A DNA stretch of 64,000 nucleotides from Candidatus Poriferihabitaceae bacterium (GCA_965206445.1 CBDBJR010000002.1:2568741-2632740); one strand, 5' to 3'; positions 5,585-59,612 are shown, numbered from the stretch's first letter. Numbers and translations: made by a program. The notes: a model not told the origin generated them from the sequence alone.

Positions 5585-6184
5585 ATGAATACACCGGCAC
5601 ACGTTATTTTCAGCTTGTCTCTGCTGGGGCGCACACGGGCGGCCCGATTCGCCCTGCCGATTACCGCCGGTGCGCTGCTGCCCGACGTGTTGATGGTGAT
5701 GTTTTACATCTATGAAAAAATGCTCGGTGTGCCGGAACACATTATATGGAACCAGCATTACTTCCTGCCACACTGGCAGATGGTGTTCGATCTGCCGAAC
5801 TCATTTCCGTTGATTGCGATTGGCGCCATCATCGCCTGGCGCATCCGCTCGTCGGCATGGATATGCTTGTTTGCCAGCATGTGTGTCCATTGCATACTGG
5901 ATTTGCTGGTGCATCATGACGACGGCCACCGCCACTTTTTCCCGCTCAGTGATTTTCGCTTCCAAAGCCCGGTTTCGTACTGGGACCCGGCCCATTACGG
6001 CAGCATTGTATCGGTGCTGGAAGTCCTTCTGGTCGGTGCCGGGGTGATCTATCTATGGCTTGCCGAGCAGCAGAAAGCGGCGGTCGTATTTCCGCTCACG
6101 CGCCTGCGTCAGGTCGTGTTACTGGTCACTGCGATCTACGCCGCTTTCATGGTGTTTGCGGTGTTTAGCTGGTCTGCCGGCTGA
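5585..6184 (+). CDS. integral membrane protein, possible membrane-bound metal-dependent hydrolase (YdjM/DUF457-like)
   Basis: 199 aa and hydrophobic. His/Asp-rich motifs (LLPD, HCILDLLVHHDDGHRHF) resemble membrane metal-hydrolase families. The functional call is weak. Confidence 0.5.
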   Translation: MNTPAHVIFSLSLLGRTRAARFALPITAGALLPDVLMVMFYIYEKMLGVPEHIIWNQHYFLPHWQMVFDLPNSFPLIAIGAIIAWRIRSSAWICLFASMCVHCILDLLVHHDDGHRHFFPLSDFRFQSPVSYWDPAHYGSIVSVLEVLLVGAGVIYLWLAEQQKAAVVFPLTRLRQVVLLVTAIYAAFMVFAVFSWSAG

Positions 6185-28540: not shown

Positions 28541-28725
28541 TACAGTTTTCATGTGTTAATCAGATGTTCCTTAAATTATTGGTGTAAGTGCGTATAAAAA
28601 ATATGCCATGAAAAAGTGAAAAAAGATCGACTTTAGCGAAAAAATTATGGTATTTTCGAGGATGCCCGCGTAGGTGGGCGTCCATAATATTAAATTTTTT
28701 TATATTTACCAAACTGGAGGAAGCC

Positions 28726-43443: not shown

Positions 43444-43551
43444 AACAGATGCCCCTCATGATGTAGTAGCCGGATTCGATTTGTTCGATAATGGCCATGG
43501 CGGTCGGCGTAAAACCAAATATTGCGATGGTGTTTCCGGGCTCGCTTTTTT

Positions 43552-44403
43552 CTATCGGCTGCGCTCGGCGACCACCTGCTGGCGTTGTTCGCCCAACCCG
43601 TCGATGCCGAGCGCCACCCCCTGCCCCGCGCGCAAATACACCGGCGGCTTTCTCCCCAGACCGACGCCTTGCGGTGTTCCGGTCGAGATGATATCACCGG
43701 ATTGTAAAGACATGAATTGACTCAAATATGAAATCACATAAGGCACATTGAATATCATGTCGGCGGTATTGCTATCCTGGCGCATTTCGCCATCCACGCT
43801 CAGCCACAACCGAAGATTATCGGGCGCTTTGATTTCATCCGGTGTTACCAGGTACGGGCCGGTCGGACCGAAGGTGTCACAGCTTTTTCCTTTAATCCAT
43901 TGCCCATCTCGCTCCAACTGAAACGCGCGTTCGGAAATATCATGTATCACGCAGTAGCCCGCAATATGTGCAGGCGCGTCTTGTTCGTGCGTATATTTTG
44001 CCGGGCGCCCGATGACTACCCCCAATTCCACTTCCCAGTCCACTTTGCTTGCCCCTTTGGGAATAACGATATCGTCATTCGGGCCGCACATGGCACTGGT
44101 CGCTTTACCAAAAATTACCGGCTCGCGCGGCAACTCCGCCCCCGACTCAATGGCATGCTGCGCATAGTTCAAGCCGATGCAAATAAACTTGCCGGGACGG
44201 GCGATGCAGGATCCCAGGCGCGGTGACCCGGACGCTGCCGGAAAATTTGACACCTCCATGGTTGAAATTTCAGCCAGGTTTTCCGGCAAAAGCGCGTCAC
44301 CGTGCCAATCATCAACCACCGATGACAGGTCACGAATCGTACCGGTTTCATCCAGCAGCCCCGGCTTTTCACAGCCAATTTCGCCAAAACGCAACAGTTT
44401 CAT
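43552..44403 (-). CDS. fumarylacetoacetate hydrolase-family protein (2,4-diketo-3-deoxy-acid hydrolase-like)
   Basis: MKLLRFG..., GLNYAQH, DWEVELGVVIG and GDIISTGTPQGVG motifs. GAGGA lies upstream of ATG 44403. Confidence 0.88.
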   Translation of the reverse strand: MKLLRFGEIGCEKPGLLDETGTIRDLSSVVDDWHGDALLPENLAEISTMEVSNFPAASGSPRLGSCIARPGKFICIGLNYAQHAIESGAELPREPVIFGKATSAMCGPNDDIVIPKGASKVDWEVELGVVIGRPAKYTHEQDAPAHIAGYCVIHDISERAFQLERDGQWIKGKSCDTFGPTGPYLVTPDEIKAPDNLRLWLSVDGEMRQDSNTADMIFNVPYVISYLSQFMSLQSGDIISTGTPQGVGLGRKPPVYLRAGQGVALGIDGLGEQRQQVVAERSR

Positions 44404-44466
44404 AATGCAGTCCTCGGTCGATTGTATTGTTACCAATATAAGTTCACGGATCAGACGCTTACGTGA

Positions 44467-45189
44467 TTAATTTGCCCAGCCGCCGTCGATAACATGAATG
44501 GCACCGGTAGTGAACGCAGATTCATCCGAAGCAAGATACGCCGCCAGCGCCGCAATCTCTTCGGCACTACCCAGTCGCCCCATCGGCTGTCGCGCCACAA
44601 AAGAATCCACCGCCGCTTGATAATCGCCCCCCAATGCCGAGACGCGATCCTCCCAGGAAGGTGTATGCACTGTGCCCGGACAAATTGCATTGCAACGAAT
44701 CCCTTGCGTAACAAAATCCGCAGCGATGGATTTAGTCAAACCGATGACCGCCGCTTTGGTCGCGCCATACACAAACCGGGACGGTGCCCCTTTCACCGAA
44801 GACACAACCGATGACATATTAACAATGGCACCGCCGCCGTTCGCGATCATATCCGGCAAAAAGGCGCGGATTACCCGGTACATGCTTTTCACATTCAGAT
44901 CAAAAGAAAAGTCCCAATCCTTTTCATCGCACTCCAGAATCGTGCCGTGATGCACAAACCCGGCGCAATTAAAAAGAACATCGATCGGACCGGTTTGTTT
45001 AACCAGTGCCTTGATTGCCGTATCGTCCAGTACATCCAGTCGACAGGTTTCACACCCGTCGAGATCCACTGCATTCACATCGGTCGCGATAACACGCGCA
45101 CCTTCGGCAATAAATCTTTGCGCGGTAGCGCGCCCGATACCCTGCGCGGCGGCGGTCACCAGTGCGGTTTTGTTTTTGAGTTTGCTCAT
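44467..45189 (-). CDS. short-chain dehydrogenase/reductase (BDH2 / 2-keto-3-deoxy-L-fuconate dehydrogenase-like)
   Basis: TALVTAAAQGIGRA, NMSS and YGATKAAV SDR motifs. Confidence 0.9.
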   Translation of the reverse strand: MSKLKNKTALVTAAAQGIGRATAQRFIAEGARVIATDVNAVDLDGCETCRLDVLDDTAIKALVKQTGPIDVLFNCAGFVHHGTILECDEKDWDFSFDLNVKSMYRVIRAFLPDMIANGGGAIVNMSSVVSSVKGAPSRFVYGATKAAVIGLTKSIAADFVTQGIRCNAICPGTVHTPSWEDRVSALGGDYQAAVDSFVARQPMGRLGSAEEIAALAAYLASDESAFTTGAIHVIDGGWAN

Positions 45190-45198
45190 TTGGAAGTT

Positions 45199-46266
45199 TT
45201 ATGTTTCGATTCTATTTTCGGTTTTCGGATCAAACAAATGAATTTTATCCGGATTCACGTAAAAGTTGAAGGTGTCGCCCGGCGACAGCGCTTTACTTTC
45301 GTCATATGAGATTTGTAATACAATTCTCTCTTCGCCTAGCATTGCGTGAATGATAGCACCCCCGCCAGTTGGTTCAATCAATTGAACAGTGGCAGCAAGA
45401 GAAGAATTTCCATTGCCGTCTGCCAGTAACAGATCATGCGGACGAATACAGTAAAAAACGTTTTTTGGTAGAGAAACTCGCTCTGGCAAGGGGAATTTTT
45501 TACCATCGATTACGCAATACCCGCCATCAACGACACCTTCAAACACATTAATCTCCGGCGAGCCAACGAAAGTCGCAACATACAGATTGGTTGGCAATGA
45601 ATATATTTCATCCGGACTGCCGATCTGATCAATCCCGCCGTTTCGCATCACCATGATTCGATCGCCCATCGTTATTGCTTCTATTTGGTCGTGAGTAACA
45701 TAAATGGTCGTGGTAGATAAAGATCTGTGTAACGACTTAATCTCACTTCGCACCTTTGCACGAAGTCGAGCATCCAAGTTAGAAAGTGGTTCATCAAAAA
45801 GAAACACGCGTGGGCTTCGAACCATCGCGCGACCCATCGCAACTCGTTGGCGTTGCCCACCTGACAATTCCCCCGGCCGATGCTTGAAATGCTGCTGTAG
45901 CCCGAGCATACTTGCCACCTCTTGCACACGTTTATCAATATCGGCTTTCGCCATCTTTCGAATTTTCAGGCTAAATGCAAGATTTTCATACACCGTCATC
46001 AACGGATACAATGCATAATTTTGAAATACCATCGCAACACCACGCTCACGAGGATGTATCTCGCTCACATTCTTGTCACCAATAAAAACATCTCCGCTGG
46101 TTTGTTTTTCTAATCCTGCTATGATTCTCAACAGCGTGGACTTACCACACCCGGAAGGTCCTAGCATTACCAAAAATTCGCCGTCAGTAACCTCTAAATC
46201 CACTTTGTCCAGCACAATAGAGTTGCCATAGTGCTTTGAGATACGGCTACAAACTACTTGAGACAT
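45199..46266 (-). CDS. ABC sugar-transport ATP-binding protein (MalK/UgpC-like)
   Basis: [23 protein letters not shown] and LFDEPLSNLD motifs. Confidence 0.9.
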   Translation of the reverse strand: MSQVVCSRISKHYGNSIVLDKVDLEVTDGEFLVMLGPSGCGKSTLLRIIAGLEKQTSGDVFIGDKNVSEIHPRERGVAMVFQNYALYPLMTVYENLAFSLKIRKMAKADIDKRVQEVASMLGLQQHFKHRPGELSGGQRQRVAMGRAMVRSPRVFLFDEPLSNLDARLRAKVRSEIKSLHRSLSTTTIYVTHDQIEAITMGDRIMVMRNGGIDQIGSPDEIYSLPTNLYVATFVGSPEINVFEGVVDGGYCVIDGKKFPLPERVSLPKNVFYCIRPHDLLLADGNGNSSLAATVQLIEPTGGGAIIHAMLGEERIVLQISYDESKALSPGDTFNFYVNPDKIHLFDPKTENRIET

Positions 46267-46269
46267 GAT

Positions 46270-47571
46270 TCAAAACTCCATACTTTCGAGAATGCCACAG
46301 TCATCGGCAACATCCAGAATCGTGAAACGGTCACGAATAAACCTCCCATACTTAATCGCATCAATATAAAACTCCGCATCAAAACCCAAATCGCCAGGCG
46401 TCATGTGGGCACCGGCAGCTACCAAAGGTGCTGAAATTTCTTTCACGCTTAACATAACATTGCGAAGCGGTACTACGAATTCATCCCAGTTGTCAGCGAG
46501 ATGTACATTCCACTTGTAAACCAAATCCCTGGTAAATTCTTTTTTTGCATAACATGCAGCGAATTCTGATGTTCCTTGCGAACCAAATTTAGTGGCGAAG
46601 AAATGATTATTGCGCTTAGTATATTGCAGTTGAGGTGGCGTATTTGAATGCAGAATTTTGTTCTGTATTCGTGAGATTGATAATGAGGTAACACCAACTT
46701 GTTCACCGTGCAGGGTTCCTGGATGTTTATCACCTGCAAACATGTCCAAGTAATGCGAAACCATATGTTCAGCCATACTGCCTGGGTGTGTCGTGCCGAC
46801 AACTGCACTGCCAAGACCGTTCAAAGCACAAGTTCGAACCAGCGACGCCAACACATCAAAGTCGCGTTCATGCAGATGCTGGGCGTTGGCAAAAAGAGAT
46901 TCTTCGTCATATGCAAGAAGAGTGTATGGAATTTTGCTATACGGCGTATCCCAAAAAGCTTGCGACAATAGCCAGTCAACTTGTGCAGTTGAGCGACATA
47001 CTACATCGGATAATGCACTATTAACTAACTGCTTTGGGCAGTCGGAAAGAATTTTAAGATCTACGAATACACCCTTTGCACTATGCGCCGGCAACGAGCG
47101 CTTTGTACCACCCTGCGTAATTGATGCAGTGCCCGTAGTGTACGCATTCATTGGAGAAGTTGGGAATACCGAGTAGGTTTTTTTACTGAGAAAGGATGCG
47201 TATTTAATTAAATCGCTAACCGTGCCGGACCCCACCGCAACCAAAATATCTGCATTTCGAGTCAGGTGTTGCAATTCTTTTACACCTTCCATGGTCGACT
47301 TAGGATTGTGCAATGCCAGTAAATCACAGCATCCACCTATACTGGCGGCTACACGGCTACCTAAAATCCCCTCGGTTATCTGGTCACAGACGACGAGGAT
47401 TTTTCCCTTGCCGTGCAACGATCGAATCAATTCGCCCTCAATACCATCCAGCGTATCGCGGATTTCAATGGATTTTATCGGAATGGTCAGGCGTGCGCCA
47501 GAATCCGCGTCTTGCCATGTTCCAGAAACCAATTCGTGCAACACCCCAAGATAGTTGGGTTGTGTATTCAT
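46270..47571 (-). CDS. iron-containing alcohol dehydrogenase superfamily protein, sn-glycerol-1-phosphate dehydrogenase (AraM/EgsA)-like
   Basis: 433 aa with the nucleotide-binding turn AVGSGTVSDLIKYAS and His-rich metal-site region (HPGSMAEHMVSHYLD...HGEQVG). The substrate is unknown. Confidence 0.7.
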   Translation of the reverse strand: MNTQPNYLGVLHELVSGTWQDADSGARLTIPIKSIEIRDTLDGIEGELIRSLHGKGKILVVCDQITEGILGSRVAASIGGCCDLLALHNPKSTMEGVKELQHLTRNADILVAVGSGTVSDLIKYASFLSKKTYSVFPTSPMNAYTTGTASITQGGTKRSLPAHSAKGVFVDLKILSDCPKQLVNSALSDVVCRSTAQVDWLLSQAFWDTPYSKIPYTLLAYDEESLFANAQHLHERDFDVLASLVRTCALNGLGSAVVGTTHPGSMAEHMVSHYLDMFAGDKHPGTLHGEQVGVTSLSISRIQNKILHSNTPPQLQYTKRNNHFFATKFGSQGTSEFAACYAKKEFTRDLVYKWNVHLADNWDEFVVPLRNVMLSVKEISAPLVAAGAHMTPGDLGFDAEFYIDAIKYGRFIRDRFTILDVADDCGILESMEF

Positions 47572-47580
47572 GTTACGCGG

Positions 47581-49077
47581 TTATGTGCTCGCTGTTGACA
47601 TGGCAACTGATTTTGCTGCCGGATAAAGTTCAGTGTAGGCGTTTAGTAGATGTTTATACTCACCAGCATTACATCCGGGTTCAAAACTCGCGGTTATCTT
47701 ACCACACATGTTTTTGCAAGATTGAAGTATCGATGGAAACAACCCGGCACCAGCCGCAGCCACCATTCCAGCCCCCAGTGCTGATGCTTCAATGGTGTCG
47801 GTTCTACATACTAATCGATCAAAGCAATCGGCAAAAATCTGGCACCACATATCGCTTTGTGCGCCACCGCCAACCACATAATACTGCTTGACCGACACGC
47901 CAGTGTCGCGTTCAATCATACGCATGCAATCTGCTTGATCGAGCGCAATCCCTTCCATAACTGCACGATAAAGATGCGCTCGCCCATGACTTCCACCAAG
48001 GCCAAAAATCGCACCTCGTGCGCTTGTATCCCAATGCGGATTCATAGCCCCAGACCAATACGGCAACACTCGCACACCATCTGAACCAGCCGGCAAACTT
48101 GCGGCTTGTGACTCGAGAGCGTCGAATTCACCGCCATTTTTGCCAGCAAATATTTCTCCTACAAGCCAGTTTAAAAGAAACGTGCCAGACCGCAGACAAC
48201 TCTCCATGATATATCCATCGCCGCTCATTGAAGTCATGGTGCGCCACGCATCACCATATACGTATTTGCTGTGATGTGCACCGCAAACTACCGCAGTTCC
48301 TATATTGACATACGCAGTGCTGGCACTCACAACCCCCATTGCAAGTCCGGCGCATTGTCCATCGCCACCGCCTGCAATAACCAGTATTCCTTGCGGAAGC
48401 CCGGTCTGCGACGCGGCTTCTGCATTTATTTCCCCGAGCGGTGTTCCAGGTTTTTCGGCATGCGGAAAAATACTGTCGCTCCAACCCAACTCGCTAAGAA
48501 TTTCATTGGACCAGCATTTGTCTGTGATATTCCAGCAACCCATCGGATCAGCACTCGCCCAACTGGTTTTGAATACGCCAGTTAATCGTTTAACCAGAAA
48601 TCCCTGTACATCGCTTATTACTTGAATGTCGCTGCAGATTTTTGGTTCGTGCTTTCGCATCCAAGCCAACCGATAAACCACTGGCGTTATGTCTTTGTGC
48701 TTACCAGTTATGCGGTGGATTTTGTCTGCGCCGATCTTCTCGGCAAATTCGTCAACCTCATCACGAGCTCGCTCGTCCAGCCAAACAATGGCTGGTGCCA
48801 CAGAATCCGCATTGTTGGTCAAAAACGCCACGGTCTCTCGCTGATTTGAAATCGCCAAAGCGATTGCATTACCCACATCCAATATCTTGCTTAATTCAGA
48901 AATCGCGGTGATAAAAGCCCCCCACCAATGGACTGGGTCTTGTTCATAAATGCCGGGCGCCGGCGTATTTAGCGGAATATCGCATCTTCCTGTGCCGAGA
49001 TTAGCCCCTGAACTACTCCATGCCACAACTTTAGCGGCAGTGGTTGAAATGTCAACTCCAAGTATGAACTTTTCCAT
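47581..49077 (-). CDS. FGGY-family carbohydrate kinase
   Basis: FILGVDISTTAAKVVAW N-terminus, ISNQRETVAF and the GGGAQS C-terminal motif. Confidence 0.88.
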   Translation of the reverse strand: MEKFILGVDISTTAAKVVAWSSSGANLGTGRCDIPLNTPAPGIYEQDPVHWWGAFITAISELSKILDVGNAIALAISNQRETVAFLTNNADSVAPAIVWLDERARDEVDEFAEKIGADKIHRITGKHKDITPVVYRLAWMRKHEPKICSDIQVISDVQGFLVKRLTGVFKTSWASADPMGCWNITDKCWSNEILSELGWSDSIFPHAEKPGTPLGEINAEAASQTGLPQGILVIAGGGDGQCAGLAMGVVSASTAYVNIGTAVVCGAHHSKYVYGDAWRTMTSMSGDGYIMESCLRSGTFLLNWLVGEIFAGKNGGEFDALESQAASLPAGSDGVRVLPYWSGAMNPHWDTSARGAIFGLGGSHGRAHLYRAVMEGIALDQADCMRMIERDTGVSVKQYYVVGGGAQSDMWCQIFADCFDRLVCRTDTIEASALGAGMVAAAGAGLFPSILQSCKNMCGKITASFEPGCNAGEYKHLLNAYTELYPAAKSVAMSTAST

Positions 49078-49155
49078 TTATTATCGACTCGAAAAATACG
49101 CCGGGGGCAATACAACCCCCGGCGCTTTCAAACATCACAGATAAACAAAGCCCGG

Positions 49156-50670
49156 TTAGTAACGCGAAAAGGCTTTATCAACGCCTTTGGAAATTACATC
49201 CAACACTTCTTTGGGCGATGTATAGTCACCAGCAAAAAAGCGTCCCAGTTCAACCGGGATCACACCGTTTGAAACCTCAGCCCAAGCCGGGTGGTCTGGC
49301 TCCGACCCCATGTAACCCTCTATTGCCTTGCGGGTAACATCGAAGTGTCGCGTCGTTCCTGCACCCGGTTGTGCTTTGGCGAGTATCCGCGGGTCTTCGT
49401 AAGTGCTACGTCGCATCGGACTCGCACCGCCACCCAACAACGAGACGCGAATATTCATATCTGCGGACGATCCCCATTGCGCGAAAACCCAAGCCGCATC
49501 AAGATTTTTCGAGTATCTAGATATAGCTAACGCGCTACCTCCTTGGTGAGCGGTGCCTGGTATCTCCCCATGACCTGCCTCGCTTGCCTTGCGCAACTCA
49601 CGCGAAGGCCTTAGTGGTAATGATGGCTCCAGAAGCCCTGACACTTTTGAGTTTTCTGGATTATCCAGACCCGGAAAAAACTCGCCCCACGAATAAACCT
49701 GTGCAGCCAAACCTTGCGCCATTGAAGTAAACTCGCCATCCCAAGTCCAGTTCAGGACATCAGGTGGCATGTTTTCTTTAAGACGAGTCCAGTATTCCAT
49801 TGCATCAATTCCACGTTGGTCGTTGCCAGAAAACTTGCCATCGGGCGAGAATATGGAACCGCCATGCCCCCATAGCCAATTAGTCCAGTCGCACTCCAGG
49901 CTATAATGACCGCTTTTCATCTGCCCAGTTGTGCCGAATAATTTTCCACCGTATTCAGCTTGAATTGCACGGGCGTTGTCAAGATACTGGGTATAAGTAG
50001 TCGGCGCACTCAGTCCCAATTTATCGTAGATATCCTTGCGATACATCACGATAAAAATCGGAATATCGAAAGGCACTCCGACCATTTTACCGCGAAACAT
50101 GCTGATTCCTTCGGTAAGCGGTGCCAGAAAATCATCAAAATCATAATCTGGCATCGCAAGGTCGGGCTTATTGCGGTAGATCTCGCGTGGATCGACGGTG
50201 TCGTTCGAGAATGAAGCCATCCAACTCTGATCGAGATAGTAAAGATCATAAGATCCAATACCGCCAGCAACGTCTTGGGTCAGTTTTTGCAGCACTTGTT
50301 CAAGCGGCACGATCTCCACCTGAACCTCAATGCCAGTATATTTGGTAAAGTCATTCTTCACCAACGTGGACAAAACCTGGCTCGGTGGCGTGGCTTCAGT
50401 GGCATATTTTATGGTGATATCTTTGCCTTTGAACCCTCGGCCGACGTCTTTCAGCCAGGCCGTAATCTCAGGCGACTGCTCGCCCTCGTTGGCAGCATGC
50501 GCCGCTGATATTGGCGAGAATGAGCGATTCGCTAAACCACCAAAAAGACCGGCACCACCAGCAACAAATCCCAACACAGCGGATTGTCGTAGAAAATCTC
50601 TGCGACTGATTTTACCGCAGACAAGTTTCTCAGTAAGTTTTGCCAAATGTTGCATATTAATCGCTTTCAT
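49156..50670 (-). CDS. ABC sugar-type (family 1) substrate-binding protein with a Tat-like signal
   Basis: ISRRDFLRQSAVLGFVAGGAGL twin-arginine leader. GGAGG lies 4 nt upstream of ATG 50670. Confidence 0.85.
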   Translation of the reverse strand: MKAINMQHLAKLTEKLVCGKISRRDFLRQSAVLGFVAGGAGLFGGLANRSFSPISAAHAANEGEQSPEITAWLKDVGRGFKGKDITIKYATEATPPSQVLSTLVKNDFTKYTGIEVQVEIVPLEQVLQKLTQDVAGGIGSYDLYYLDQSWMASFSNDTVDPREIYRNKPDLAMPDYDFDDFLAPLTEGISMFRGKMVGVPFDIPIFIVMYRKDIYDKLGLSAPTTYTQYLDNARAIQAEYGGKLFGTTGQMKSGHYSLECDWTNWLWGHGGSIFSPDGKFSGNDQRGIDAMEYWTRLKENMPPDVLNWTWDGEFTSMAQGLAAQVYSWGEFFPGLDNPENSKVSGLLEPSLPLRPSRELRKASEAGHGEIPGTAHQGGSALAISRYSKNLDAAWVFAQWGSSADMNIRVSLLGGGASPMRRSTYEDPRILAKAQPGAGTTRHFDVTRKAIEGYMGSEPDHPAWAEVSNGVIPVELGRFFAGDYTSPKEVLDVISKGVDKAFSRY

Positions 50671-50981
50671 AATTACCTCCCCACCCTCTCGGGCATCAAC
50701 ACGCCAGGCACTATTGCCTAACGTAAATCGAGCATAGCATATAGCCGCCACCTTGATAATACCACCTATAAATCCACCTTATGCCGTGTTATAAGTATAT
50801 TTAACAAAAATGGCTAGCCACACCAACCATGCAAGTTTCTGAATGTCCGCCAAATATCGTTATCGAACAGCATAAAACGTACACCATATAGAGTTTAAAA
50901 AGCAATGGAAAACTTAAGTTCTTTGGAAGCAGATTCTGCTCAATGCACCTGTGGATATATTAAATATTATTTGCAGCACTC

Positions 50982-51878
50982 TTACTTTAAAGACCCAAGC
51001 GTCAGCCCTCTAACCAAATGCTTTTGTACCAGCACAATAAATATGAACGATGGCAGAATAGCAGCACAGGTTAGCGCCGCCATGTAACCCCAAGCGGTGC
51101 CAGTTGATGTGACAAAAGTTGATGCTGCAACTGGTACTGTATTCACTTTGGCTTGCGTGAGTGAAAGTATGAATAGAAATTCTGTCCAACTAAAAATAAA
51201 ACACAACACAGCGGTCGCTGCAATGCCACCACGCATAGATGGCACGACCAACTGCATAAAAACAGTCAGGCGTGACGCTCCATCCAACATTGCAGCCTCG
51301 TCAATTTCTTTTGGAATGTCATCGATAAAACTTTTGAGTAGTAGCACTGCCAATGGTAAATTCATCAGCGCGTGAATCAGAATCGCTCCAGTATATGTGT
51401 CGATCAGGCCAAACTCGCGATATAAAAAAAACATCGGAAGGGCTACTGCTACCGGCGGCATCATGCGAGTCGACAAAATCCAAAAAACAAAATGATGCCG
51501 GCCAGAAAAACGCATTCGCGATAGCGCGTACGCAGCCAAAACTGAAATTATGACAGTGACAATTGTGCTTGCAATGCTGATATAAACACTATCCAAAAGA
51601 ACTGGCAAGGCAAAAGTTGAACTGCTTTCGCCCCAATGCACAGCACCGCCTTTTTCAATTGATGTTGAGGATGGCGATATTCCAAGCAACACTACTTTGT
51701 AGGACTTAAAGGTTACATCCGGCACAAATAATTTTGGCGGTTTGTTAAATATGTCCTGATCGACCCGTAACGAGACAGAAACCCACCAGTAAAGTGGAAA
51801 CATAAAAGCCACAACCACAAACCACGCTATTGTGGCGCGCAACAAACGCTGCCAGATTTGCGGCTTAGTGATCACCAT
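50982..51878 (-). CDS. ABC sugar-type permease
   Basis: Polytopic protein with EAA loop EIDEAAMLDGASRLTVFMQLVVP. Confidence 0.88.
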   Translation of the reverse strand: MVITKPQIWQRLLRATIAWFVVVAFMFPLYWWVSVSLRVDQDIFNKPPKLFVPDVTFKSYKVVLLGISPSSTSIEKGGAVHWGESSSTFALPVLLDSVYISIASTIVTVIISVLAAYALSRMRFSGRHHFVFWILSTRMMPPVAVALPMFFLYREFGLIDTYTGAILIHALMNLPLAVLLLKSFIDDIPKEIDEAAMLDGASRLTVFMQLVVPSMRGGIAATAVLCFIFSWTEFLFILSLTQAKVNTVPVAASTFVTSTGTAWGYMAALTCAAILPSFIFIVLVQKHLVRGLTLGSLK

Positions 51879-52750
51879 TTAACCCTGGCCGCCTTAATAA
51901 ATATATTTGCAACCACGATTAAAAAAATCAGGGCGAACAAACTCAGCGTCGCCGCATAACCCCATTTCACGAACGAAAAGCTCTGCTTCCATGTATAAAA
52001 GCTTAAAGTTTGCGTGGCGATACCGGGACCACCAGATGTCATAACAAAAACATAATCAAACATCCGAAACAAATCAATGCCTCGGATAAGAACCGCCACG
52101 GCAATAATCGGTCGTAGCATCGGCAAGGTTAAATGCAATAACACATGGCGGAATCTTGCACCATCAATCATAGCCGCCTCAAATGGCTCTCTCGGCAAGG
52201 CGTGCAATCCAGCCAACATGATCAACACCATAAACGGCGTCCACTGCCAAATATCAGCAAGCATAACGCCGACCAAAGCGGTTTTGGGTGATGTTAAAAG
52301 TGGTGCGCCGGGTGCAATCAATCCCAGCCACTGCAACATCCACGACAGCACTCCAAATTGCGAATCTTCCATTAACAAAAACATCATGCCAACCACCGCC
52401 GGCGGCACCACCAACGGCAAAAGCAGCAGGCTTCTAATAATGCTATAGCCGGCGCTGTCAGTGTTGATTAGTATAGCGATGCCCAAACCAAGCACGAATT
52501 GCACTACTAAGCAAACTACTAAATAAATGATGTTCACACCGAAAGCCCGCCACATTTGCTCGTCTTCAAACATGCCGCGCCAGTTGTCAAACCCGACGAA
52601 AGTGAAACTTCGCCTGAATGAATTAAACTCGTGGAAACTCAGGTAGATGTTGTAGAAAAACGGAAACAACGTGAATACGGCAAGCACACAAACAAGCGGA
52701 GCAAGCCATACCCATGGCCGGTCCAGCGACAAAATGGAAAACCTGCTCAT
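51872..52750 (-). CDS. ABC sugar-type permease
   Basis: Polytopic protein with EAA loop PFEAAMIDGARFRHVLLHLTLP. The track start at 52756 is GTG; ATG 52750 was preferred. Confidence 0.86.
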   Translation of the reverse strand: MSRFSILSLDRPWVWLAPLVCVLAVFTLFPFFYNIYLSFHEFNSFRRSFTFVGFDNWRGMFEDEQMWRAFGVNIIYLVVCLVVQFVLGLGIAILINTDSAGYSIIRSLLLLPLVVPPAVVGMMFLLMEDSQFGVLSWMLQWLGLIAPGAPLLTSPKTALVGVMLADIWQWTPFMVLIMLAGLHALPREPFEAAMIDGARFRHVLLHLTLPMLRPIIAVAVLIRGIDLFRMFDYVFVMTSGGPGIATQTLSFYTWKQSFSFVKWGYAATLSLFALIFLIVVANIFIKAARVKW

Positions 52751-52763
52751 ACCCACTTTGTGC

Positions 52764-53408
52764 TCACGATTTTAATCCGTAGTCACGAAACTTCTCAACA
52801 ACATGCATGATCTCATTATCGGGTAGCAGATTCGGACCTCCGAGTAATTTTGAGAATACATACTGCTGCGCCAGCACTTCAATCTCTTTTGCAAGCCACA
52901 AGGCTTTTGCGATACTAGGGCCGGTGGCTATGACACCGTGATTTGCAAGTAAGCACCCATTCCTCCCATCAAGTGCGGTGAGAGCTTGCTCAGACAAGCC
53001 GGGGGTGCCAAATGTTTTGTAGTCGCTGCAACGAATTGTCGGCCCACCAGCAGCGGCGATCATGTAATGCACCGCAGGGATACTCTCGCCCCGAATAGAT
53101 AGAATTGATGCATACATGGAATGCGTATGCACTATGGCGTTGACATCCTCGCGCTTTCGGGTTATATCAAGGTGAAACCGCCATTCGGTCGACGGAACAC
53201 CATCGCCCTCGCGTCCGCCCTCCCAATCAACAAAAACAATGCTGTCCGGCTTCATCGCCTCATATGGAACAGCCGATGGGGTGACCAAAATCCCACCATC
53301 TACTCTCGCACTCACGTTGCCGGAAGTACCTTGGTTAATTCCCATATCGTTCATTTTAATACAGGTTTCAATAATCTCTCGCCTGATGTCGACGCTGGTT
53401 TTTTTCAT
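52764..53408 (-). CDS. class II (metal-dependent) aldolase/adducin-family protein (FucA/AraD-like)
   Basis: GTSGNVSAR and HTHS motifs. GGAGAA RBS upstream. First gene of the minus-strand operon. Confidence 0.88.
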   Translation of the reverse strand: MKKTSVDIRREIIETCIKMNDMGINQGTSGNVSARVDGGILVTPSAVPYEAMKPDSIVFVDWEGGREGDGVPSTEWRFHLDITRKREDVNAIVHTHSMYASILSIRGESIPAVHYMIAAAGGPTIRCSDYKTFGTPGLSEQALTALDGRNGCLLANHGVIATGPSIAKALWLAKEIEVLAQQYVFSKLLGGPNLLPDNEIMHVVEKFRDYGLKS

Positions 53409-53443
53409 GGATTTTCTCCGATTGAAGTTGCAAGATGGCAGTG

Positions 53444-53520
53444 ATTATAAACCAAACCAATTGTGTGGACACTCCGAAACGAAAATCTCTATTTGATATA
53501 GAAAGTAACCCAGCCCCAGG
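53444..53520 (-). repeat. 16S-tail / spacer-start repeat, copy 1
   Basis: The core AATTGTGTGGACACTCCGAAAC (53459-53480) matches 59550-59571 at 19 of 22 positions in the same orientation. The flanks show weaker, gapped similarity. Confidence 0.65.
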
Positions 53521-53885
53521 CTCCCCCGGAGCTACCGTGTCACGGCTTCACCCCAGCCATGAACCATACCGTAGTAACCGCTCCCTCGAAGGTAAGCCAG
53601 CCACTTCTGGCACAGCCCACTCCCATGGTGTGACGGACGGTGTGTACAAGCCCCGGAAACATATTCACCGCGGCATTCTGACCCACGGTTCCCGGCGATT
53701 TCGACTTCATGGAGCCGAGTTGCAGACACCAATCCGGACTACGACCGGTTTTCCGGGATTGGCTTGCTCTCGCGACCCTCTGTACCGGCCATTGTAGCAG
53801 GTGGGCAGCCCTGCCTATAAGAGCCATGATGACTTGACGCCATTCCCCCCTTCCTCCGGTTTATCACCGGCAGGCTCCTATACTG
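53497..53885 (-). pseudogene. degenerate 3'-domain fragment of a 16S rRNA gene (roughly E. coli positions 1160-1542)
   Basis: The plus strand reads as the reverse complement of a 16S 3' end. Examples: ...CTTCACCCCAGCCATGAACCAT..., CCCACTCCCATGGTGTGACGGACGGTGTGTACAAGCCCCGGAAACATATTCACCGCGGCATTCTGA, GACTTCATGGAGCCGAGTTGCAGACACCAATCCGGACTACGA, CATTGTAGCAGGTG, CCATGATGACTTGACGCCATTCCCCCCTTCCTCCGGTTTATCACCGGCAGGCTCC. There are many substitutions at universally conserved positions. Confidence 0.85.
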
Positions 53886-53997
53886 GATTGAGAGACTTCC
53901 AGCGAATCGAAGCACCCACACAAAACGCATAGATTGATAGCATAAAACTATCATGAGATGATCATATATCGTCAGAAAATATCAGAGCGGGGTGCAT

Positions 53998-54981
53998 TCA
54001 GGAAATTTCGCGCCAGCGGATGCAGGCGACCTGACGATTGTCGCCGGCGTCTTCCAGTAACGGGATTTGTTCGGCGCATTGCAATTTGGCGTGCGGACAG
54101 CGTCCGCGAAAGACGCAACCGGACGGCGGCGAAAGCGGTGACGGCGGTTCGCCGGACAAGGTCGGCGGCTTCCATGCGCGCGCGGCGTTGGCATCCAGGG
54201 GCGGCGCGCTTGCCAGCAGTCCGCGCGTGTAGGGGTGCAGCGGCGCGCGAAACAGGTTATCCGCAGCGCCCGTTTCCATGACCCGCCCCAGATATAAAAC
54301 CATGACCCGCCCGCTTGATGCGCGCACCACCGACAAGTCGTGGCTGATAAACAGCATCCCCAGTTTTTGTTGTGCGCGAATGTCGGTGAGCAAATTCAAA
54401 ATTTGCGCCTGCACCGAAACATCCAGCGCCGACACCGGTTCATCGCACACCAAAAGCCGCGGCGCCAAAATCAGCGCCCGCGCGATGCCGATGCGTTGCG
54501 CTTGCCCACCGGAAAACTCGTGCGGATAGCGCACCGCCGCCGACTGTGGAAGGCCTACTTTGTCCATCAATTCCAGCGCCCGCTCGCGCCGCGCCGCCAC
54601 CGTTAGTTCGGGGGCAAACACGCGCAGCGGTTCCGCCACAATGTCGCATGCGGTCATACGCGGGTTTAACGACGCCAACGGATCTTGAAAAATTATTTGC
54701 ATGATGCGTCGCCGTTTTTGCAGCTCACGCGAAGGCAGGACAGACAAATCCTCGCCGTCCAGCAGTACGCGCCCGCCGGCAGGGCGTATCAAAAACATCA
54801 CCGCACGCGCCAGTGTGGATTTACCACAACCGGATTCGCCCACAATGCCCAGTGTTTCGTCTTTGGCAAGGTCAAAGGAAACCTGTGAAAGCGCGTGCAA
54901 CGACCGTTGCACAAAAAAACCGACGCGCGCCTTATAGGTGACGGTTAGATTTTCCGCCCGTAGTAGCGGATTTGTCATCAT
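53998..54981 (-). CDS. peptide ABC transporter ATP-binding protein (OppF/DppF-like)
   Basis: GESGCGKST, FSGGQAQRIGIARA and a C-terminal Cys-rich oligopeptide-ATPase tail. Confidence 0.9.
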   Translation of the reverse strand: MMTNPLLRAENLTVTYKARVGFFVQRSLHALSQVSFDLAKDETLGIVGESGCGKSTLARAVMFLIRPAGGRVLLDGEDLSVLPSRELQKRRRIMQIIFQDPLASLNPRMTACDIVAEPLRVFAPELTVAARRERALELMDKVGLPQSAAVRYPHEFSGGQAQRIGIARALILAPRLLVCDEPVSALDVSVQAQILNLLTDIRAQQKLGMLFISHDLSVVRASSGRVMVLYLGRVMETGAADNLFRAPLHPYTRGLLASAPPLDANAARAWKPPTLSGEPPSPLSPPSGCVFRGRCPHAKLQCAEQIPLLEDAGDNRQVACIRWREIS

Positions 54982-56015
54982 GCGACGGGAGCAGGCGGCG
55001 AGAGTCGGGTGTCATCCGGGCGGGCGTGAAAGGCCGCGATGGAAATTTCTTCCTCCCGATGGCATGCGGCATAGCGGTTTGTTCCGCGCGGCGACAACTC
55101 CGGACACTCGGTATGGCAACGCGGCATGACAAAGGGACAGCGCGCCGCAAACGGGCAACCGCTCTCTTGCGTCCCGGGTTCCGGCGGGTGTCCGGAAATG
55201 ACCGGCAGGCGCACACCGGGGCGGGCGGTTTCCAGCCGCGGCGTGGATGCCATCAGCCCCGCGGTGTAAGGATGGCGCGGAGTGGAAAGCACTTCGCTGA
55301 CCGGGCCGATTTCCATCGCGCGGCCGGCGTACATGACCAGCATGCGGTCGCATAACCCCGCCACCACCGCCAAATCGTGGGTGATAATCGCTGTTGCCAG
55401 CGAAAATTGTTCGCGCAGTTTTGCCAACAGGGCGATAATCTGCGCCTGCACGGTCGCATCCAAAGCGGTGGTGGGTTCATCGGCGACGAGTAGCGTCGGT
55501 TCGCACAAAAGCGCCATGGCGATGACAGCGCGCTGTCGCAGTCCGCCGGACAATTCGTGCGGATAGGTCGAAAGCCGCTGTGCTGCGTCCGGCACGCCTA
55601 CCAGCTCCAGCATGGCTGCCGCCTTTTTGCGCGCTTCTGCGCGCGTCCACTTCATGCGCCGACGCGGACCTTCGGTCAATTGTGTTACCAGGCGCATGGA
55701 CGGGTTCAGCGCGGTCATCGGGTCTTGAAAAATCATTGCCAGCTCGCCGCCGCGCAACTCGTCGAGCGTACGCCGGTCCATTGCCAGCAGATCGCGACCG
55801 CGATACAGCGCGCTTCCTTCCGCCCGACCGCCGGGCGATAAAAGCCCCAGCAGTGATAAAAACAGCTGCGTTTTTCCGCTTCCGGATTCGCCGACGATCG
55901 CCAACGCCTCGCCGGGAAACAAGTCAAATGACAAATCACGCACTACCGCAATGTCACGCCCGTCGCGCCGGTGGCGGACGGTTACATTGCGCACGGAAAG
56001 CAAGGGCGACGGCAT
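54978..56015 (-). CDS. peptide ABC transporter ATP-binding protein (OppD/DppD-like)
   Basis: GESGSGKTQ and LSGGLRQRAVIAMA motifs. The start is ATG 56015 or ATG 56057; the latter overlaps the permease by 29 nt. Confidence 0.88.
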   Translation of the reverse strand: MPSPLLSVRNVTVRHRRDGRDIAVVRDLSFDLFPGEALAIVGESGSGKTQLFLSLLGLLSPGGRAEGSALYRGRDLLAMDRRTLDELRGGELAMIFQDPMTALNPSMRLVTQLTEGPRRRMKWTRAEARKKAAAMLELVGVPDAAQRLSTYPHELSGGLRQRAVIAMALLCEPTLLVADEPTTALDATVQAQIIALLAKLREQFSLATAIITHDLAVVAGLCDRMLVMYAGRAMEIGPVSEVLSTPRHPYTAGLMASTPRLETARPGVRLPVISGHPPEPGTQESGCPFAARCPFVMPRCHTECPELSPRGTNRYAACHREEEISIAAFHARPDDTRLSPPAPVA

Positions 56016-56028
56016 GCGCGATATGCGA

Positions 56029-56919
56029 TTACGTTTTGTGCTGCGGGTCCAGCGCATCGCGCAACCCGTCGCCGATAAAAATCAGACTCAGCAGGGCGCA
56101 AGACAGCACCGCCCCCGGGAACGCCAGCATCCACGGATAAATCCCCAGTTTGTCCGCACCTTCGCTGATCAGTACGCCCAGCGAAGTGCGCGGCTCCTGT
56201 ACGCCAAACCCCAGATAAGAAAGAAAACTTTCGGTCAGCATGATTTCCGGCACGGTCAACGCGGCATAAATGACCACGGGGCCGACCAGATTGGGGGCGA
56301 TGTGGCGAAAAATAATCGCCGTCGAAGAAAGCCCCGCCGCGCGCGCCGCCTCGACAAACTCTCGCTCGCGCAGACTGAGGGTTTGTCCGCGCACAATGCG
56401 CGCCATCGTGATCCATTCCAACAACCCGATGCCGAGGTACAAAAGAATCTCGTGACGACCAAAAATGACCATCAGCAAAATCACAAAAAGAATGTAGGGC
56501 AGCGCGTAGAGGATATCCACAAAGCGCATCATCGCTTCATCCACTCGGCCACCAAAATATCCCGCCGCCGCACCGTAGGCGACACCGACCGCAACCGAAA
56601 CGGCGGTGGCAATGAGGGCGACTTGCAGGGATACGCGCAGCCCCAGCAAAGTGCGTGCAAACAGACAGCGTCCGTTGACGTCAAAACCGAAAATATGAAA
56701 CCCGCCATCCAACGTCGGGCCGGCCTTGATTTTGTCCCAAAAAATGTCGTCGTACGTGTGCGGCAGCAAAAATGGCACGACAATCGCCGCCAACGCCAGC
56801 GTCAACAACACCCCCGCCGCCGTCATTGCCATCGGCGAATCGGCGAAACGCCGTGCGGCCTGCCGCCAGGGGCCGCGCGCCGCGTCTTCTTTCGTCCGCC
56901 GCCAGCTGCCGAACATCAT
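56029..56919 (-). CDS. peptide ABC permease (OppC/DppC-like)
   Basis: Polytopic protein with EAA loop EFVEAARAAGLSSTAIIFRHIAPN. Confidence 0.88.
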   Translation of the reverse strand: MMFGSWRRTKEDAARGPWRQAARRFADSPMAMTAAGVLLTLALAAIVVPFLLPHTYDDIFWDKIKAGPTLDGGFHIFGFDVNGRCLFARTLLGLRVSLQVALIATAVSVAVGVAYGAAAGYFGGRVDEAMMRFVDILYALPYILFVILLMVIFGRHEILLYLGIGLLEWITMARIVRGQTLSLREREFVEAARAAGLSSTAIIFRHIAPNLVGPVVIYAALTVPEIMLTESFLSYLGFGVQEPRTSLGVLISEGADKLGIYPWMLAFPGAVLSCALLSLIFIGDGLRDALDPQHKT

Positions 56920-57839
56920 CGGTGACGGACGCGCGGGTCGAGCAGCGCATACAGCATATCAACTACCAGATTGAGCGCGAGAATGAGAAACAGATAAAAC
57001 ACCACGGTGCCAAGCACCATGCCGTAGTCCCGGCTGAGCGCCGCATCAATAAAAAATTTCCCCACGCCCGGCAGTCCGAAGATGTTTTCCACCACAATGG
57101 AGCCGGTGAGCAAATAGCCGGCAGCCGGTCCGAGATAGGACACTACCGGCGACAGTGCCGGACGCACCGCATGGCGGAAAATCACCGCGCCTTCACCCAG
57201 CCCTTTTGCCCGAGCGACCCGCACAAAATTTACGTTCATCACTTCCAGTAGCGCACCGCGCATCAGTCGCGACACGCGCGCCGCATGCGGCAATGACAGC
57301 ACAATCACCGGTAGCATCAGATATGCCCAGCCGCCGTCCCCCCAACCGCCAATTTTCAGCCAGTCAACGTGTTTGCCGACATACTCCTGCAACAGCGGAC
57401 CGACGAGGAAATTCGGTATGACCAAACCGGCGAGAACAAAAACGGTGACACCGGTTTCCAACGGTCTCCCGGGGCGCAAGGCGGAGTAAATTCCACAAAG
57501 AATCCCAATCAGCGTACCGCCCAAAAGCGCCCACCCGCCCAGCTCCAATGTGTAGGGCAGCCCCTTGCTGATTTTTTCGTTGACCGTGTAGGTGTAATCG
57601 GTAAACGAAGGCCCCAGGTCTCCGCGCACCAGTCTGCCGAGATACAGGACGTATTGCTCTAACAATGGGCGGTCCAGGTGATAGTGCTGCTCCAGATTTT
57701 CACGGATTTGTCTGGGCAGCGGGCGTTCTTCATCAAACGGCCCACCGGGCGCCAGGCGCAACATAAAAAAGCAGGCACTCACGGCGATGAACGCCACCGG
57801 CAGGGCGGTCATCAACCGCCGCAAAGCGTAGCGCAACAT
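56916..57839 (-). CDS. peptide ABC permease (OppB/DppB-like)
   Basis: MLRYALRRLMTALPVAFIAVSACFFMLRLAPGGPFDEE is a canonical OppB/DppB N-terminus. Confidence 0.9.
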   Translation of the reverse strand: MLRYALRRLMTALPVAFIAVSACFFMLRLAPGGPFDEERPLPRQIRENLEQHYHLDRPLLEQYVLYLGRLVRGDLGPSFTDYTYTVNEKISKGLPYTLELGGWALLGGTLIGILCGIYSALRPGRPLETGVTVFVLAGLVIPNFLVGPLLQEYVGKHVDWLKIGGWGDGGWAYLMLPVIVLSLPHAARVSRLMRGALLEVMNVNFVRVARAKGLGEGAVIFRHAVRPALSPVVSYLGPAAGYLLTGSIVVENIFGLPGVGKFFIDAALSRDYGMVLGTVVFYLFLILALNLVVDMLYALLDPRVRHR

Positions 57840-57877
57840 CGCCTGCTTCCCTTACGTCCGTGATAACGGGGCGAGTG

Positions 57878-59458
57878 TTATTCCGACTTTGTCAGATAGC
57901 GGGTGCGGTGAATATCGCGGGCGTTGTTGACGAATCCGCGAATTTTCGGCGAGACAATGTTGCGCGACACATAATAATAAATCGGTATCGCCGCCGAGTG
58001 GTCAATCGCAATCTGCTCTGCCTGCAAAAACAAATCGGCGCGTTTTTCCAGGTCGCTTTCTTTTTCCGCCTGCGACATCAACTCGCCGAACTCTTCGTTG
58101 TGCCAGCGTCCGTAATTGTACGGACTGTCGGGCGACAGCAGTTCCAGCATGTTCACCGGGTCGTTGTAGTCCGCCAGCCAGCCGGCGCGGGCGATGTCAA
58201 AACCGGTGTTTTCCGTCAGGTCATCGTAGTGCACCTTGACCTCGGAGTTGATCAGCTCGACGCGCACGTCTAGCGGCTTCCACATACCGGCGATAGCGAC
58301 TGCCACCCGTTTGTGGTTTTCATCGGTGTTGTAGCGCAGCGCCAGTTTGAGTGGATTGTCCGGGCTGTAGCCGGCCTCGGTCATCCGTTGTCTGGCGTGT
58401 TGCAGGCGCTCGCCGTAGGGCGTGTCTTTCCATTTCGCCTGATAGGGCGTTCGGGAATTGTCCATGCCCGGCGGCACCCATGAATACGCAGCGATTTCGC
58501 CGGTGCCGATAATTTTCTCCACAATGATCTCGCGGTTGATCGCCATGGAAAGCGCCTCGCGCACGCGCACATCTTTCAACGCGGGCGTGTTGTGATTGAA
58601 GACATAATAATAAAGCCCCTGAAACGGTGCGATAAAAAGTTCGTCCGGGCGCTCGGCGCGCAAGCGGTCAATGTGATCGGTGGGAAACGCCGTCAAAATA
58701 TCAAACTCGCCGGCTTCGTAGCGCTTTAATGCGGCCGAGTTGTCTTCCAGCGCATAATAAATTACCTCGTCAATATCCAGCCGGTCGGCGGCATGATGCA
58801 TTGAATTAACCACCGAGCGCACATGCGAACCGGGAACCCATTCCACCGCCTTGTAAGGGCCGTTGGAAACAATGTTTTCCGGCCTCACCCAGTTGTCACC
58901 ATGCCGGTCATATACATGGCGGGGAATGGGGTAAGCGGTGTAGTGCGTCAGCGCGCCAAGGAAATAGGGCACCGAATTTTGCAGCGTGATGCGAAAAGTG
59001 CGGTCGTTTACCGCCTTCACGCCCAACTCGCTCACTTCTTTTTTGCCGGCGTTGATCGCCTCGCCGTTTTTAATCGGAAACTGAAGCCACGCATATTTCG
59101 CCGCCGTTTTCGGGTCCATCAATCGCCGTAATGCGAAGACAAAGTCGTGCGCGGTCACCGGCTCACCGTCCGACCACCTGGCGTCCCGCAAATAAAAAGT
59201 ATAGACCAGCCCATCGTCCGAAACCTCCCATCGCTCCGCCATGCCGGCAACCGGGTATGCGCGCGGGCCTTCGGTCACCAGCCCTTCAAACAAATCACCG
59301 ACAATGCGGTTTTCCCAGTCGCCCGACACTTTGTGCGGGTCCAGCGATGACGGGTCTCCGCCGTTGTGCATGTGCAGGGTTTTCGCCGCCACCGGCAGCG
59401 TGACCAGCGCAATAGTCAGAGTACAGGCGAGCAATGCGCCCGGCAGTTTCTTCGTCAT
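57878..59458 (-). CDS. peptide/nickel-family (family 5) substrate-binding protein
   Basis: Signal peptide MTKKLPGALLACTLTIALVTLPVAA. GGAGAG RBS upstream of ATG 59458. Confidence 0.88.
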   Translation of the reverse strand: MTKKLPGALLACTLTIALVTLPVAAKTLHMHNGGDPSSLDPHKVSGDWENRIVGDLFEGLVTEGPRAYPVAGMAERWEVSDDGLVYTFYLRDARWSDGEPVTAHDFVFALRRLMDPKTAAKYAWLQFPIKNGEAINAGKKEVSELGVKAVNDRTFRITLQNSVPYFLGALTHYTAYPIPRHVYDRHGDNWVRPENIVSNGPYKAVEWVPGSHVRSVVNSMHHAADRLDIDEVIYYALEDNSAALKRYEAGEFDILTAFPTDHIDRLRAERPDELFIAPFQGLYYYVFNHNTPALKDVRVREALSMAINREIIVEKIIGTGEIAAYSWVPPGMDNSRTPYQAKWKDTPYGERLQHARQRMTEAGYSPDNPLKLALRYNTDENHKRVAVAIAGMWKPLDVRVELINSEVKVHYDDLTENTGFDIARAGWLADYNDPVNMLELLSPDSPYNYGRWHNEEFGELMSQAEKESDLEKRADLFLQAEQIAIDHSAAIPIYYYVSRNIVSPKIRGFVNNARDIHRTRYLTKSE

Positions 59459-59533
59459 GAACTCTCTCCGTTTAATATGGGTGAATCGGCATACTGCCAT
59501 AATAAATCGAAATACGCCAACACCATAAGCACA

Positions 59534-59612
59534 TTAACAACCTCAAGCACATTGTGTGGACGCTCCGAGACTGGCTCGCTATAGGTTTGGGAGGTGTAAC
59601 TCCCCCCCACAG
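59534..59612 (-). repeat. 16S-tail / spacer-start repeat, copy 2
   Basis: Core CATTGTGTGGACGCTCCGAGAC (59550-59571). On the minus strand it is preceded by CCUGUGGGGGGGAGUUACACCUCCCAAA, which resembles the last ~28 nt of a 16S rRNA with CACCUCC intact. Confidence 0.6.

Follow-up and report, generated by a model that had tools for sequence, protein, structure and literature searches.

Probable remnants of 16S rRNA transcription units form a direct-repeat pair around a peptide transporter operon in Candidatus Poriferihabitaceae

Here we analyse two short direct repeats in a stretch of 64,000 nucleotides (nt) from a Candidatus Poriferihabitaceae bacterium (GCA_965206445.1, CBDBJR010000002.1:2568741-2632740), called the window below and numbered from its first letter. 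The repeats bracket an operon for a peptide transporter of the ATP-binding cassette (ABC) type, the opp operon, together with a fragment of a 16S ribosomal RNA (rRNA) gene. Our conclusion is that both repeats are probably decaying, non-functional leftovers of transcription units for small-subunit rRNA. At the level of sequence comparison it is established that both copies derive from the junction of a 16S 3' end with the spacer behind it, and we infer that neither copy is functional and that they come from two separate units. The repeats look like non-functional scars, and like neither a new repeat element nor a regulatory signal.

The 22-nt core reads AATTGTGTGGACACTCCGAAAC at 53459-53480 (copy 1) and CATTGTGTGGACGCTCCGAGAC at 59550-59571 (copy 2), in the same orientation, with 19 of 22 positions identical and a spacing of 6,091 base pairs (bp). 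The pair had been proposed in an earlier inspection of the letters alone (the sequence-only reading), and its coordinates, orientation, identity and spacing were all borne out by read-out of the sequence and by shuffle controls, as were the distances to the start codons: core 1 lies 50 nt before the ATG of an aldolase gene (53408) and core 2 lies 91 nt before that of the substrate-binding protein gene of the opp operon (59458). A degenerate 21-mer, with up to 3 mismatches allowed, occurs at these 2 sites only in the 64-kb window and at none in 100 dinucleotide shuffles. When the two intergenic regions are aligned locally the score is 34, while dinucleotide shuffles score 16.6 +/- 2.2 with a maximum of 28 (0 of 500 reach 34). 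The wider, gapped similarity described around the cores is real when seen through a profile of the intact rRNA (rrn) units of relatives, but the stretch over which copy 1 and copy 2 can be aligned directly is only ~39 nt long. That profile, made of 8 intact units, matched the window at exactly three places (nhmmer; E, expectation value):

53442-53879, minus strand: 438 nt including copy 1 (E 4e-127)
53876-53938, minus strand: 16S leader (E 9e-4)
59531-59598, minus strand: copy 2 (E 4.7e-8)

The core is not a dispersed repeat of the kind of repetitive extragenic palindromes (REP) or miniature inverted-repeat transposable elements (MITE): there are 2 copies in 64 kb, and all family occurrences adjoin 16S genes or 16S fragments. 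The possibility that it might be a generic element scattered over unrelated intergenic sites, which had been raised along with the repeat, is not borne out by these occurrences.

The origin of the repeats became apparent from a scan of one genome per species (185,579 species genomes) with the 18-mer TCGGAGYGTCCACACAAT. It gave 18 hits, 16 of which lie in metagenome-assembled genomes (MAGs) of Ca. Spongiihabitans or Ca. Poriferihabitaceae, sponge symbionts that belong to the order Arenicellales of the Gammaproteobacteria. The 18-mer is found 20-25 nt 3' of CACCTCC in 11 loci whose 16S genes are complete or cut by the end of the locus, and both window copies align to the family consensus that runs from the 16S end into the spacer (GGATCACCTCCT AAACCAAATAGAGATTCTCGTT TCGGAGCGTCCACACAAT TTGCTTGG). 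This family-confined 18-mer directly 3' of intact 16S genes and the profile matches confirm the derivation from the 16S-3'-end/spacer junction that the sequence-only reading had proposed by analogy with proteobacterial spacers; the E. coli spacer start that it quoted proved exact, standing directly 3' of 16S genes at 7 places per genome. Intact units of the relatives are arranged in the order promoter, leader, 16S, short spacer stub and, often, terminator. Their promoter consists of TTGACG, 17 nt, TATAAT and then CCGCGC, a boxA-like TTGTTCTTTTACAAC is present, and the leader segment that takes part in the helix described below lies downstream of the promoter and of this boxA-like stretch, ~90-110 nt upstream of the 16S start. 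In several family genomes no 23S gene was found within 5-6 kb after the 16S (per locus), and co-oriented protein genes start 50-290 nt past the stub, in some loci after a terminator. The guanine plus cytosine (GC) content of the family MAG loci is 0.41-0.54. Placed by its ApaH protein, the host of the window is 60-66% identical to gammaproteobacterial MAGs and 57-58% to Spongiihabitans; the relics may be native to it or may have been imported.

The conserved element of the spacer stub, TCGGAGCGTCCACACAATTTGCTTGG, pairs with the leader segment CAAGCAGATTGTGTGGGCGCTTCGA through 26 continuous pairs in 7 of 7 intact units tested, with a consensus energy of -42 kcal/mol for these units. None of the 26 pairs varies; the evidence for the helix is thus complementarity, with no support from covariation. 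The family element starts ~24 nt after CACCTCC, and at an equal offset E. coli has GTGCTCACACAGATTGTCTGAT, which has a CACACA-ATTG core in common with it. Taken together, the complementarity to the leader and the E. coli element at the same offset mark the repeat core as the 3' strand of a pre-16S processing helix. By position and sequence this helix appears to correspond to the RNase III stem of E. coli pre-16S RNA, and RNase III would then be the likely enzyme on the ancestral helix. RNase III cleaves the leader/spacer helix in E. coli, and we carry this over to the present clade by assumption. Unlike the E. coli stem, the helix in the window flanks no working 16S, as copy 2 is without its partner strand and in the other locus the strands bracket a 380-nt dead fragment. 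No part of the unit outside the rRNA is better conserved than the stub element, which therefore stays recognisable longest.

Copy 1 is part of a larger structure, relic 1, which consists of the following parts:

53876-53938, minus strand: leader remnant (the second profile match; blastn to the leaders of 8 relatives, best E 1e-8)
53907-53924, minus strand: 5' strand of the helix, TTTGTGTGGGTGCTTCGA, within the leader remnant, which also holds a decayed boxA-like stretch
53500-53879, minus strand: 16S pseudogene fragment, position ~1148 to the 3' end (Rfam RF00177; within the first profile match)
53442-53499, minus strand: spacer stub of copy 1 including the core (profile match, alignment), ending in TATAAT at 53446-53451

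The 16S relic had been noticed beside copy 1 in the sequence-only reading, and it is upheld by the family profile and by two minus-strand matches to RF00177 (53511-53642 at 87.2 bits and 53705-53793 at 62.7 bits; gathering score 50), which cover model positions 1229-1520. The leader, which the sequence-only reading had overlooked, is fused to 16S position ~1148 at about 53876-53879, with ~1.24 kb missing. Truncation of the gene by the opp operon is ruled out as its history, for the relic is internally deleted with the leader still attached. Identity to the family consensus is 84.8% for the 16S part, compared with an average of 95.7% between family members; 47 of the 354 family-invariant 16S columns (~13%) are changed and 307 are kept, and transitions make up 48 of 60 substitutions. 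The anti-Shine-Dalgarno motif CACCTCC has turned into TACTTTC. Since only the part from ~1148 to the end is present, invariant columns are changed and the anti-Shine-Dalgarno motif is lost, relic 1 is a pseudogene. Its stub keeps 25 of 28 family-invariant columns, which is a rate of loss equal to that of the dead 16S body, and its helix has the 4 outer pairs broken and both strands otherwise kept. No promoter could be recognised on alignment to the promoter/leader regions of relatives; the stop codon of oppF (53998) occupies its expected place. The TATAAT at the end of the stub is 38 nt before the aldolase ATG.

Copy 2 is far shorter:

59531-59598, minus strand: last ~9-11 nt of 16S and ~60 nt of spacer (the third profile match)
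59550-59571, minus strand: core, within the 3' strand of the former helix (about 59541-59570)

Compared by blastn with 11 intact units, copy 2 shows 79-96% identity (E about 1e-5 to 1e-6), and it keeps CACCTCC at 59590-59596. Permissive blastn and nhmmer found neither a 16S body nor a leader between 59599 and the stop codon of the upstream gene at 59769. The earlier description of copy 2 as a 16S end with intact CACCTCC and no 16S body upstream thus stands, while the longer 16S end that it assumed, with a helix-45 remnant at 59597-59612, is plausible but without statistical support. Lacking a leader partner, copy 2 can form no helix.

The same layout is present, at ~99% identity, in two further contigs of 3.9-4.0 Mb from metagenome assembly (L001 and L002), the window being part of a third contig of 3.36 Mb. 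Between these strains copy 2 has drifted. L002 carries 3 substitutions in its core (59555, 59557, 59570), and the surrounding intergenic stretch is 94% identical vs ~99% overall; in L001 a difference at 59533 turns the -10-like GTTAAT of copy 2 into GTTAAC.

The most probable history, in our view, is that of two decaying units. Copy 1 would be what remains of a whole unit that lost ~1.24 kb internally, from the leader to 16S position ~1148, and then drifted; copy 2 would be a second unit, in which everything was deleted upstream of the last ~10 nt of 16S, or possibly the last ~35 nt. Descent of each from an rrn unit, with no copying between the two, would then account for the likeness of the copies, and the family consensus is a better match to each of them than its partner is. 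Nothing indicates that the opp operon created the copies. The position of two units at a distance of 6 kb may go back to decay in place; alternatively, an inserted block may have brought in one stub, or both, at its edge.

Such remains are not confined to the window. At least 6 further 16S relics were found in 18 family loci, and it is the 3' end with the spacer stub that is preferentially kept:

L003: intact 16S with stub, three genes, and 3.3 kb downstream, in the same orientation, a 16S 3' relic with a stub of a different spacer allele
L005: 16S from ~1150-1300 fused to the stub
L008: 16S tail with stub, followed by an apparent decayed transfer RNA (tRNA) gene (read by eye)
L014 and L019: last ~170-240 nt of 16S with stub

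The architecture of L003 is the same as that of the window. The 5' part of a LysE pseudogene is joined to the relic of L019; in L018 the counterparts of the two, ~90% identical, lie 4.4 kb apart. For this pair of loci a circular intermediate or a tandem duplication was considered and is unsupported, as the flanking operons differ. A fresh case is L024, a GC-rich relative which shares with the window the genes for a pyrroloquinoline quinone (PQQ) dehydrogenase and cytochrome c. Its relic is nearly undecayed: it holds a 16S piece (about 965-1050) whose variable region V6 is 97.7% identical to family 16S, and a GCTG microhomology joins this piece to the 16S tail, the stub and a terminator. The relic forms the left edge of a 3.65-kb low-GC stretch (16628-20276) in the interval between genes for a HAD hydrolase and SelR, with a type IIG restriction-modification gene inside. 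The genes beside the relics of relatives, read by eye as translations, appear to encode ordinary transporters, enzymes and one helicase-like protein, with no apparent recombinase among them.

Two observations were made in passing on rRNA genes of these relatives. In L007 (OZ253546.1) three 16S pieces (1486-1661, 5561-6036 and 7532-7670) are spread over 6 kb, each 98-99% identical to the intact 16S of that genome; two of them overlap in ~45 nt of 16S (about 894-938) and flank ~3.9 kb that include a helicase-like gene. Such scatter points either to a gene broken up very recently or to an assembly error in conserved sequence. L010 (OZ242212.1), a Ca. Spongiihabitans MAG, has at 4513-4799 a group I intron (RF00028, 69.7 bits) inside its 23S gene, the 23S match extending over 4,015 nt vs the 2,925 positions of the model.

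The genes next to the two copies fall into two blocks:

53998-59458, minus strand: five-gene peptide ABC transporter operon (SBP_bac_5 binding protein, two permeases, two ATPases; open reading frames with Pfam labels)
43460-53408, minus strand: nine-gene block for sugar uptake and catabolism, GC 0.41-0.53, beginning directly after copy 1

The flanked 6.1 kb holds the five-gene operon and the 16S relic and nothing else, as the sequence-only reading had it. The operon has a GC content of 0.56-0.66, like the rest of the genome, and is not derived from rrn. No site-specific recombinase is encoded in the flanked 6.1 kb, the nearest transposase being at 27.4-28.6 kb. The sugar block encodes a class II aldolase, two permeases, a binding protein, an FGGY kinase, an iron-containing alcohol dehydrogenase, an ATPase, an SDR protein and an FAA hydrolase; together with relic 1 it makes up a low-GC block of 10.5 kb (43460-53993). 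Strain differences amount to 24-25 in 9,881 positions of the block (0.25%) vs 83-95 in 5,461 positions of the opp operon (1.5-1.7%). The switch in divergence is at 53993 against L001, and against L002 it falls between 53440 and 53637, inside the relic. All nine block proteins are identical in the 3 contigs and the neighbours on both sides vary between strains, which argues for recent spread or recombination of the block among strains, with an upstream limit at or inside relic 1; its left limit, at about 43.5 kb, is placed indirectly, from exact-protein matches. The block looks like the product of a recent transfer or sweep within the population. A second low-GC region of the window is at about 26-36 kb.

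Between the opp and sugar operons, on the minus strand at 53511-53534, the relic of helix 45 and the T-rich mutated anti-Shine-Dalgarno region (GGTTACTTTC) score terminator-like; a weak terminator may have arisen there as the 16S end decayed. At 27380-28600 the window contains an insertion sequence (IS; DDE_Tnp_1 transposase) whose translation is ~91-95% identical to that of an IS at 813-1793 of L001. The L001 element is situated upstream of the PQQ dehydrogenase gene, a place where the window and L002 have none, so transposition is active and strain-specific in the species.

Synteny was compared in relatives that have homologues of OppA or of the PQQ dehydrogenase. In those with a 76-82% identical OppA the opp operon stands in other contexts and no rrn relic accompanies it; in those that share the PQQ dehydrogenase and cytochrome c genes, these two alone are conserved and different genes follow cytochrome c. 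The comparison, which had been suggested as a check on the repeats, could thus be carried out, but contexts differed in every relative, with neither an empty site nor an intact 16S at either position, and it yielded no ancestral state.

Several of these results weigh against the history of two units decaying where they stood. The presence of the opp operon elsewhere and the differing genes after cytochrome c indicate that the gene order of the window is derived and that insertion events were likely involved. No relative has an intact 16S at either position, so that the two former units are placed there by analogy. The whole rrn comparison is made with relatives whose ApaH is just 57-66% identical to that of the window. 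The edge of a low-GC block with a separate strain history falls at relic 1, and L025 (12478-12793) is without the low-GC stretch of L024 between the same two genes; both cases fit an acquisition-linked origin better than simple decay in place. Although the three strains have the same copy 1, it lies inside the low-divergence block, and its invariance is therefore uninformative on constraint. Finally, copy 1 contains a perfect TATAAT 16 nt past GTCCA, and a minor promoter role for it may be considered.

The alternative closest to these points is that the repeats are scars of block acquisition. In that case blocks of genes downstream of unlinked 16S genes would move between genomes or loci along with a piece of the 16S 3' end and its stub, or the blocks would integrate through homology of the conserved 16S/stub with an illegitimate join at the far end, and the window would have received, in series, a stub with the opp operon and a relic with the sugar block. 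We regard this as possible, though unlikely. It would account for the coincidence of the upstream end of relic 1 with the GC shift and with the switch in divergence from 0.25% to 1.6% at 53993 against L001; the comparison with L002, however, puts part of relic 1 in resident DNA, so the relic may predate the spread of the block. The relic is moreover old, with its 13% decay, and the spread of the block is recent. The other case of this kind is L024, whose fresh relic borders a low-GC stretch absent from L025, but L025 could equally have lost the segment, and the cases with a GC shift number two. Most unlinked 16S genes and relics of the family with resolvable flanks precede co-oriented genes, which are unrelated between loci, yet co-orientation may reflect leading-strand bias alone. 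The context of the opp operon does differ in every relative examined. At neither junction, on the other hand, is there an integrase, a transposase or a target duplication. In a more general form of the idea, recombination in this clade would repeatedly use the 16S 3' end with its stub as an anchor or breakpoint when genes are acquired. Modules of 16S, stub and cargo would form, pass from genome to genome and leave relics at the upstream edges of acquired blocks; two such events would then be preserved in the window, in series, and a recent one in L024. This we consider doubtful.

A second alternative, brought up already by the sequence-only reading, is that the stubs were co-opted as leaders, serving the aldolase and opp operons as promoter, processing site or stability element. 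We think it improbable. It is true that a co-oriented operon begins, with its first gene, 50-91 nt downstream of each copy, and both copies contain promoter-like hexamers, TGTCCA-16 nt-TATAAT with a perfect -10 in copy 1 and CGTCCA-18 nt-GTTAAT in copy 2. However, no consensus sigma-70 promoter was detected on the minus strand at either copy at the threshold of the scan, the -10-like hexamer of copy 2 is mutated in L001, and the copy 2 core has its 3 changes in L002. A separate candidate -10, TTTATTATGG, is present downstream of copy 2 and kept in 3 of 3 strains; it resembles TGTATTATA upstream of oppA in L021 and L023, two relatives without a stub. Both helix strands survive in relic 1, where two substitutions, a C to T in each strand, retain G-U pairs, but the outer 4 pairs are broken, copy 2 has no leader partner at all, and the copy 1 stub decays at the pace of the 16S body.

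Local segmental duplication of a single stub, by unequal crossing-over or template switching and with later divergence, would explain why the copies have the same orientation, a similar extent on the 3' side and a comparable decay relative to the family consensus. It is nevertheless very improbable, as nothing else is duplicated between the two flanks and the copies have no convincing derived changes in common; the greatest differences are in the variable stretch from CACCTCC to the core, in which each copy is like a different allele of the family. Copy 2 keeps the CACCTCC that copy 1 has lost and so cannot descend from the present copy 1. A 'GTTA' in place of GAT before CACC was taken for a time as a derived change of both copies, which would imply duplication after pseudogenisation, and was dropped when copy 1 was found to align without gaps (GGGTTACTTTCT vs GGATCACCTCCT).

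An assembly chimera, put forward in the sequence-only reading, or else a generic dispersed repeat or a protein-binding site that has nothing to do with rrn, has a negligible chance of being the explanation: conserved rRNA segments can cause mis-joins in metagenomes, and the L007 pieces could be one such artefact, but the arrangement of the window recurs in the two 3.9-4.0 Mb contigs with strain-level differences, and a layout common to three independent assemblies excludes a chimera; heavy mutation of the relic could not come from a mis-join, and the motif, found twice in 64 kb, is elsewhere tied to 16S genes or relics.

Two decaying rrn units thus remain the preferred explanation, and the kind of feature is already known, from rRNA pseudogenes and from unlinked rRNA genes. 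As it stands, the window offers decay products and no new mechanism. It does allow a clean dissection of bacterial 16S pseudogenes, in which the 3' domain and the strands of the processing helix survive last. Relics and unlinked 16S genes also matter for 16S copy counts, for artefacts in amplicon studies and binning, and for the dismantling of rRNA operons in host-associated bacteria. What deserves further attention is that 3'-end/stub relics are abundant throughout the family and may be linked to acquired DNA; if stubs are truly linked to the edges of acquired DNA, the ends of rRNA genes would be hotspots of gene gain, which would be of wider interest.

Among known systems, unlinked 16S and 23S rRNA genes have been described in symbiotic and slow-growing bacteria (bioRxiv 10.1101/705046; PMC7761764), where they are intact. 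Several family 16S genes are like them in having no 23S nearby and protein genes close behind, and relic 1 has the same layout, but the units of the window are dead and truncated, with two stubs in tandem; a term search of bioRxiv 10.1101/705046 found no mention of relics or processing stems. With bacterial rRNA pseudogenes and partial copies the window has in common a truncated, mutated 16S fragment for which no function in the ribosome is possible. Those are rarely described, whereas here the relics recur across the family with the 3' end and stub retained; in the literature on bacterial 16S pseudogenes and on rRNA genes as recombination anchors we found scattered mentions and nothing directly comparable. 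Homology-facilitated illegitimate recombination is known from de Vries & Wackernagel 2002 and Prudhomme et al. 2002, as cited in PMC3646047. Such recombination, like the use of tRNA 3' ends as attachment (att) sites, is matched in the window by direct repeats of a stable-RNA 3' end that flank genes and by a relic at a low-GC edge. The differences from att sites are that the window has no integrase, that the copies are non-identical (19 of 22 in the cores) with very unequal 16S extents (~70 vs ~500 nt for the whole copies), that no functional 16S was restored, and that neither an empty nor a single-copy site occurs among the relatives examined. If the anchor reading were nevertheless true, the end of the rRNA gene would be a functional analogue of the att sites in tRNA genes, one that works without an integrase.

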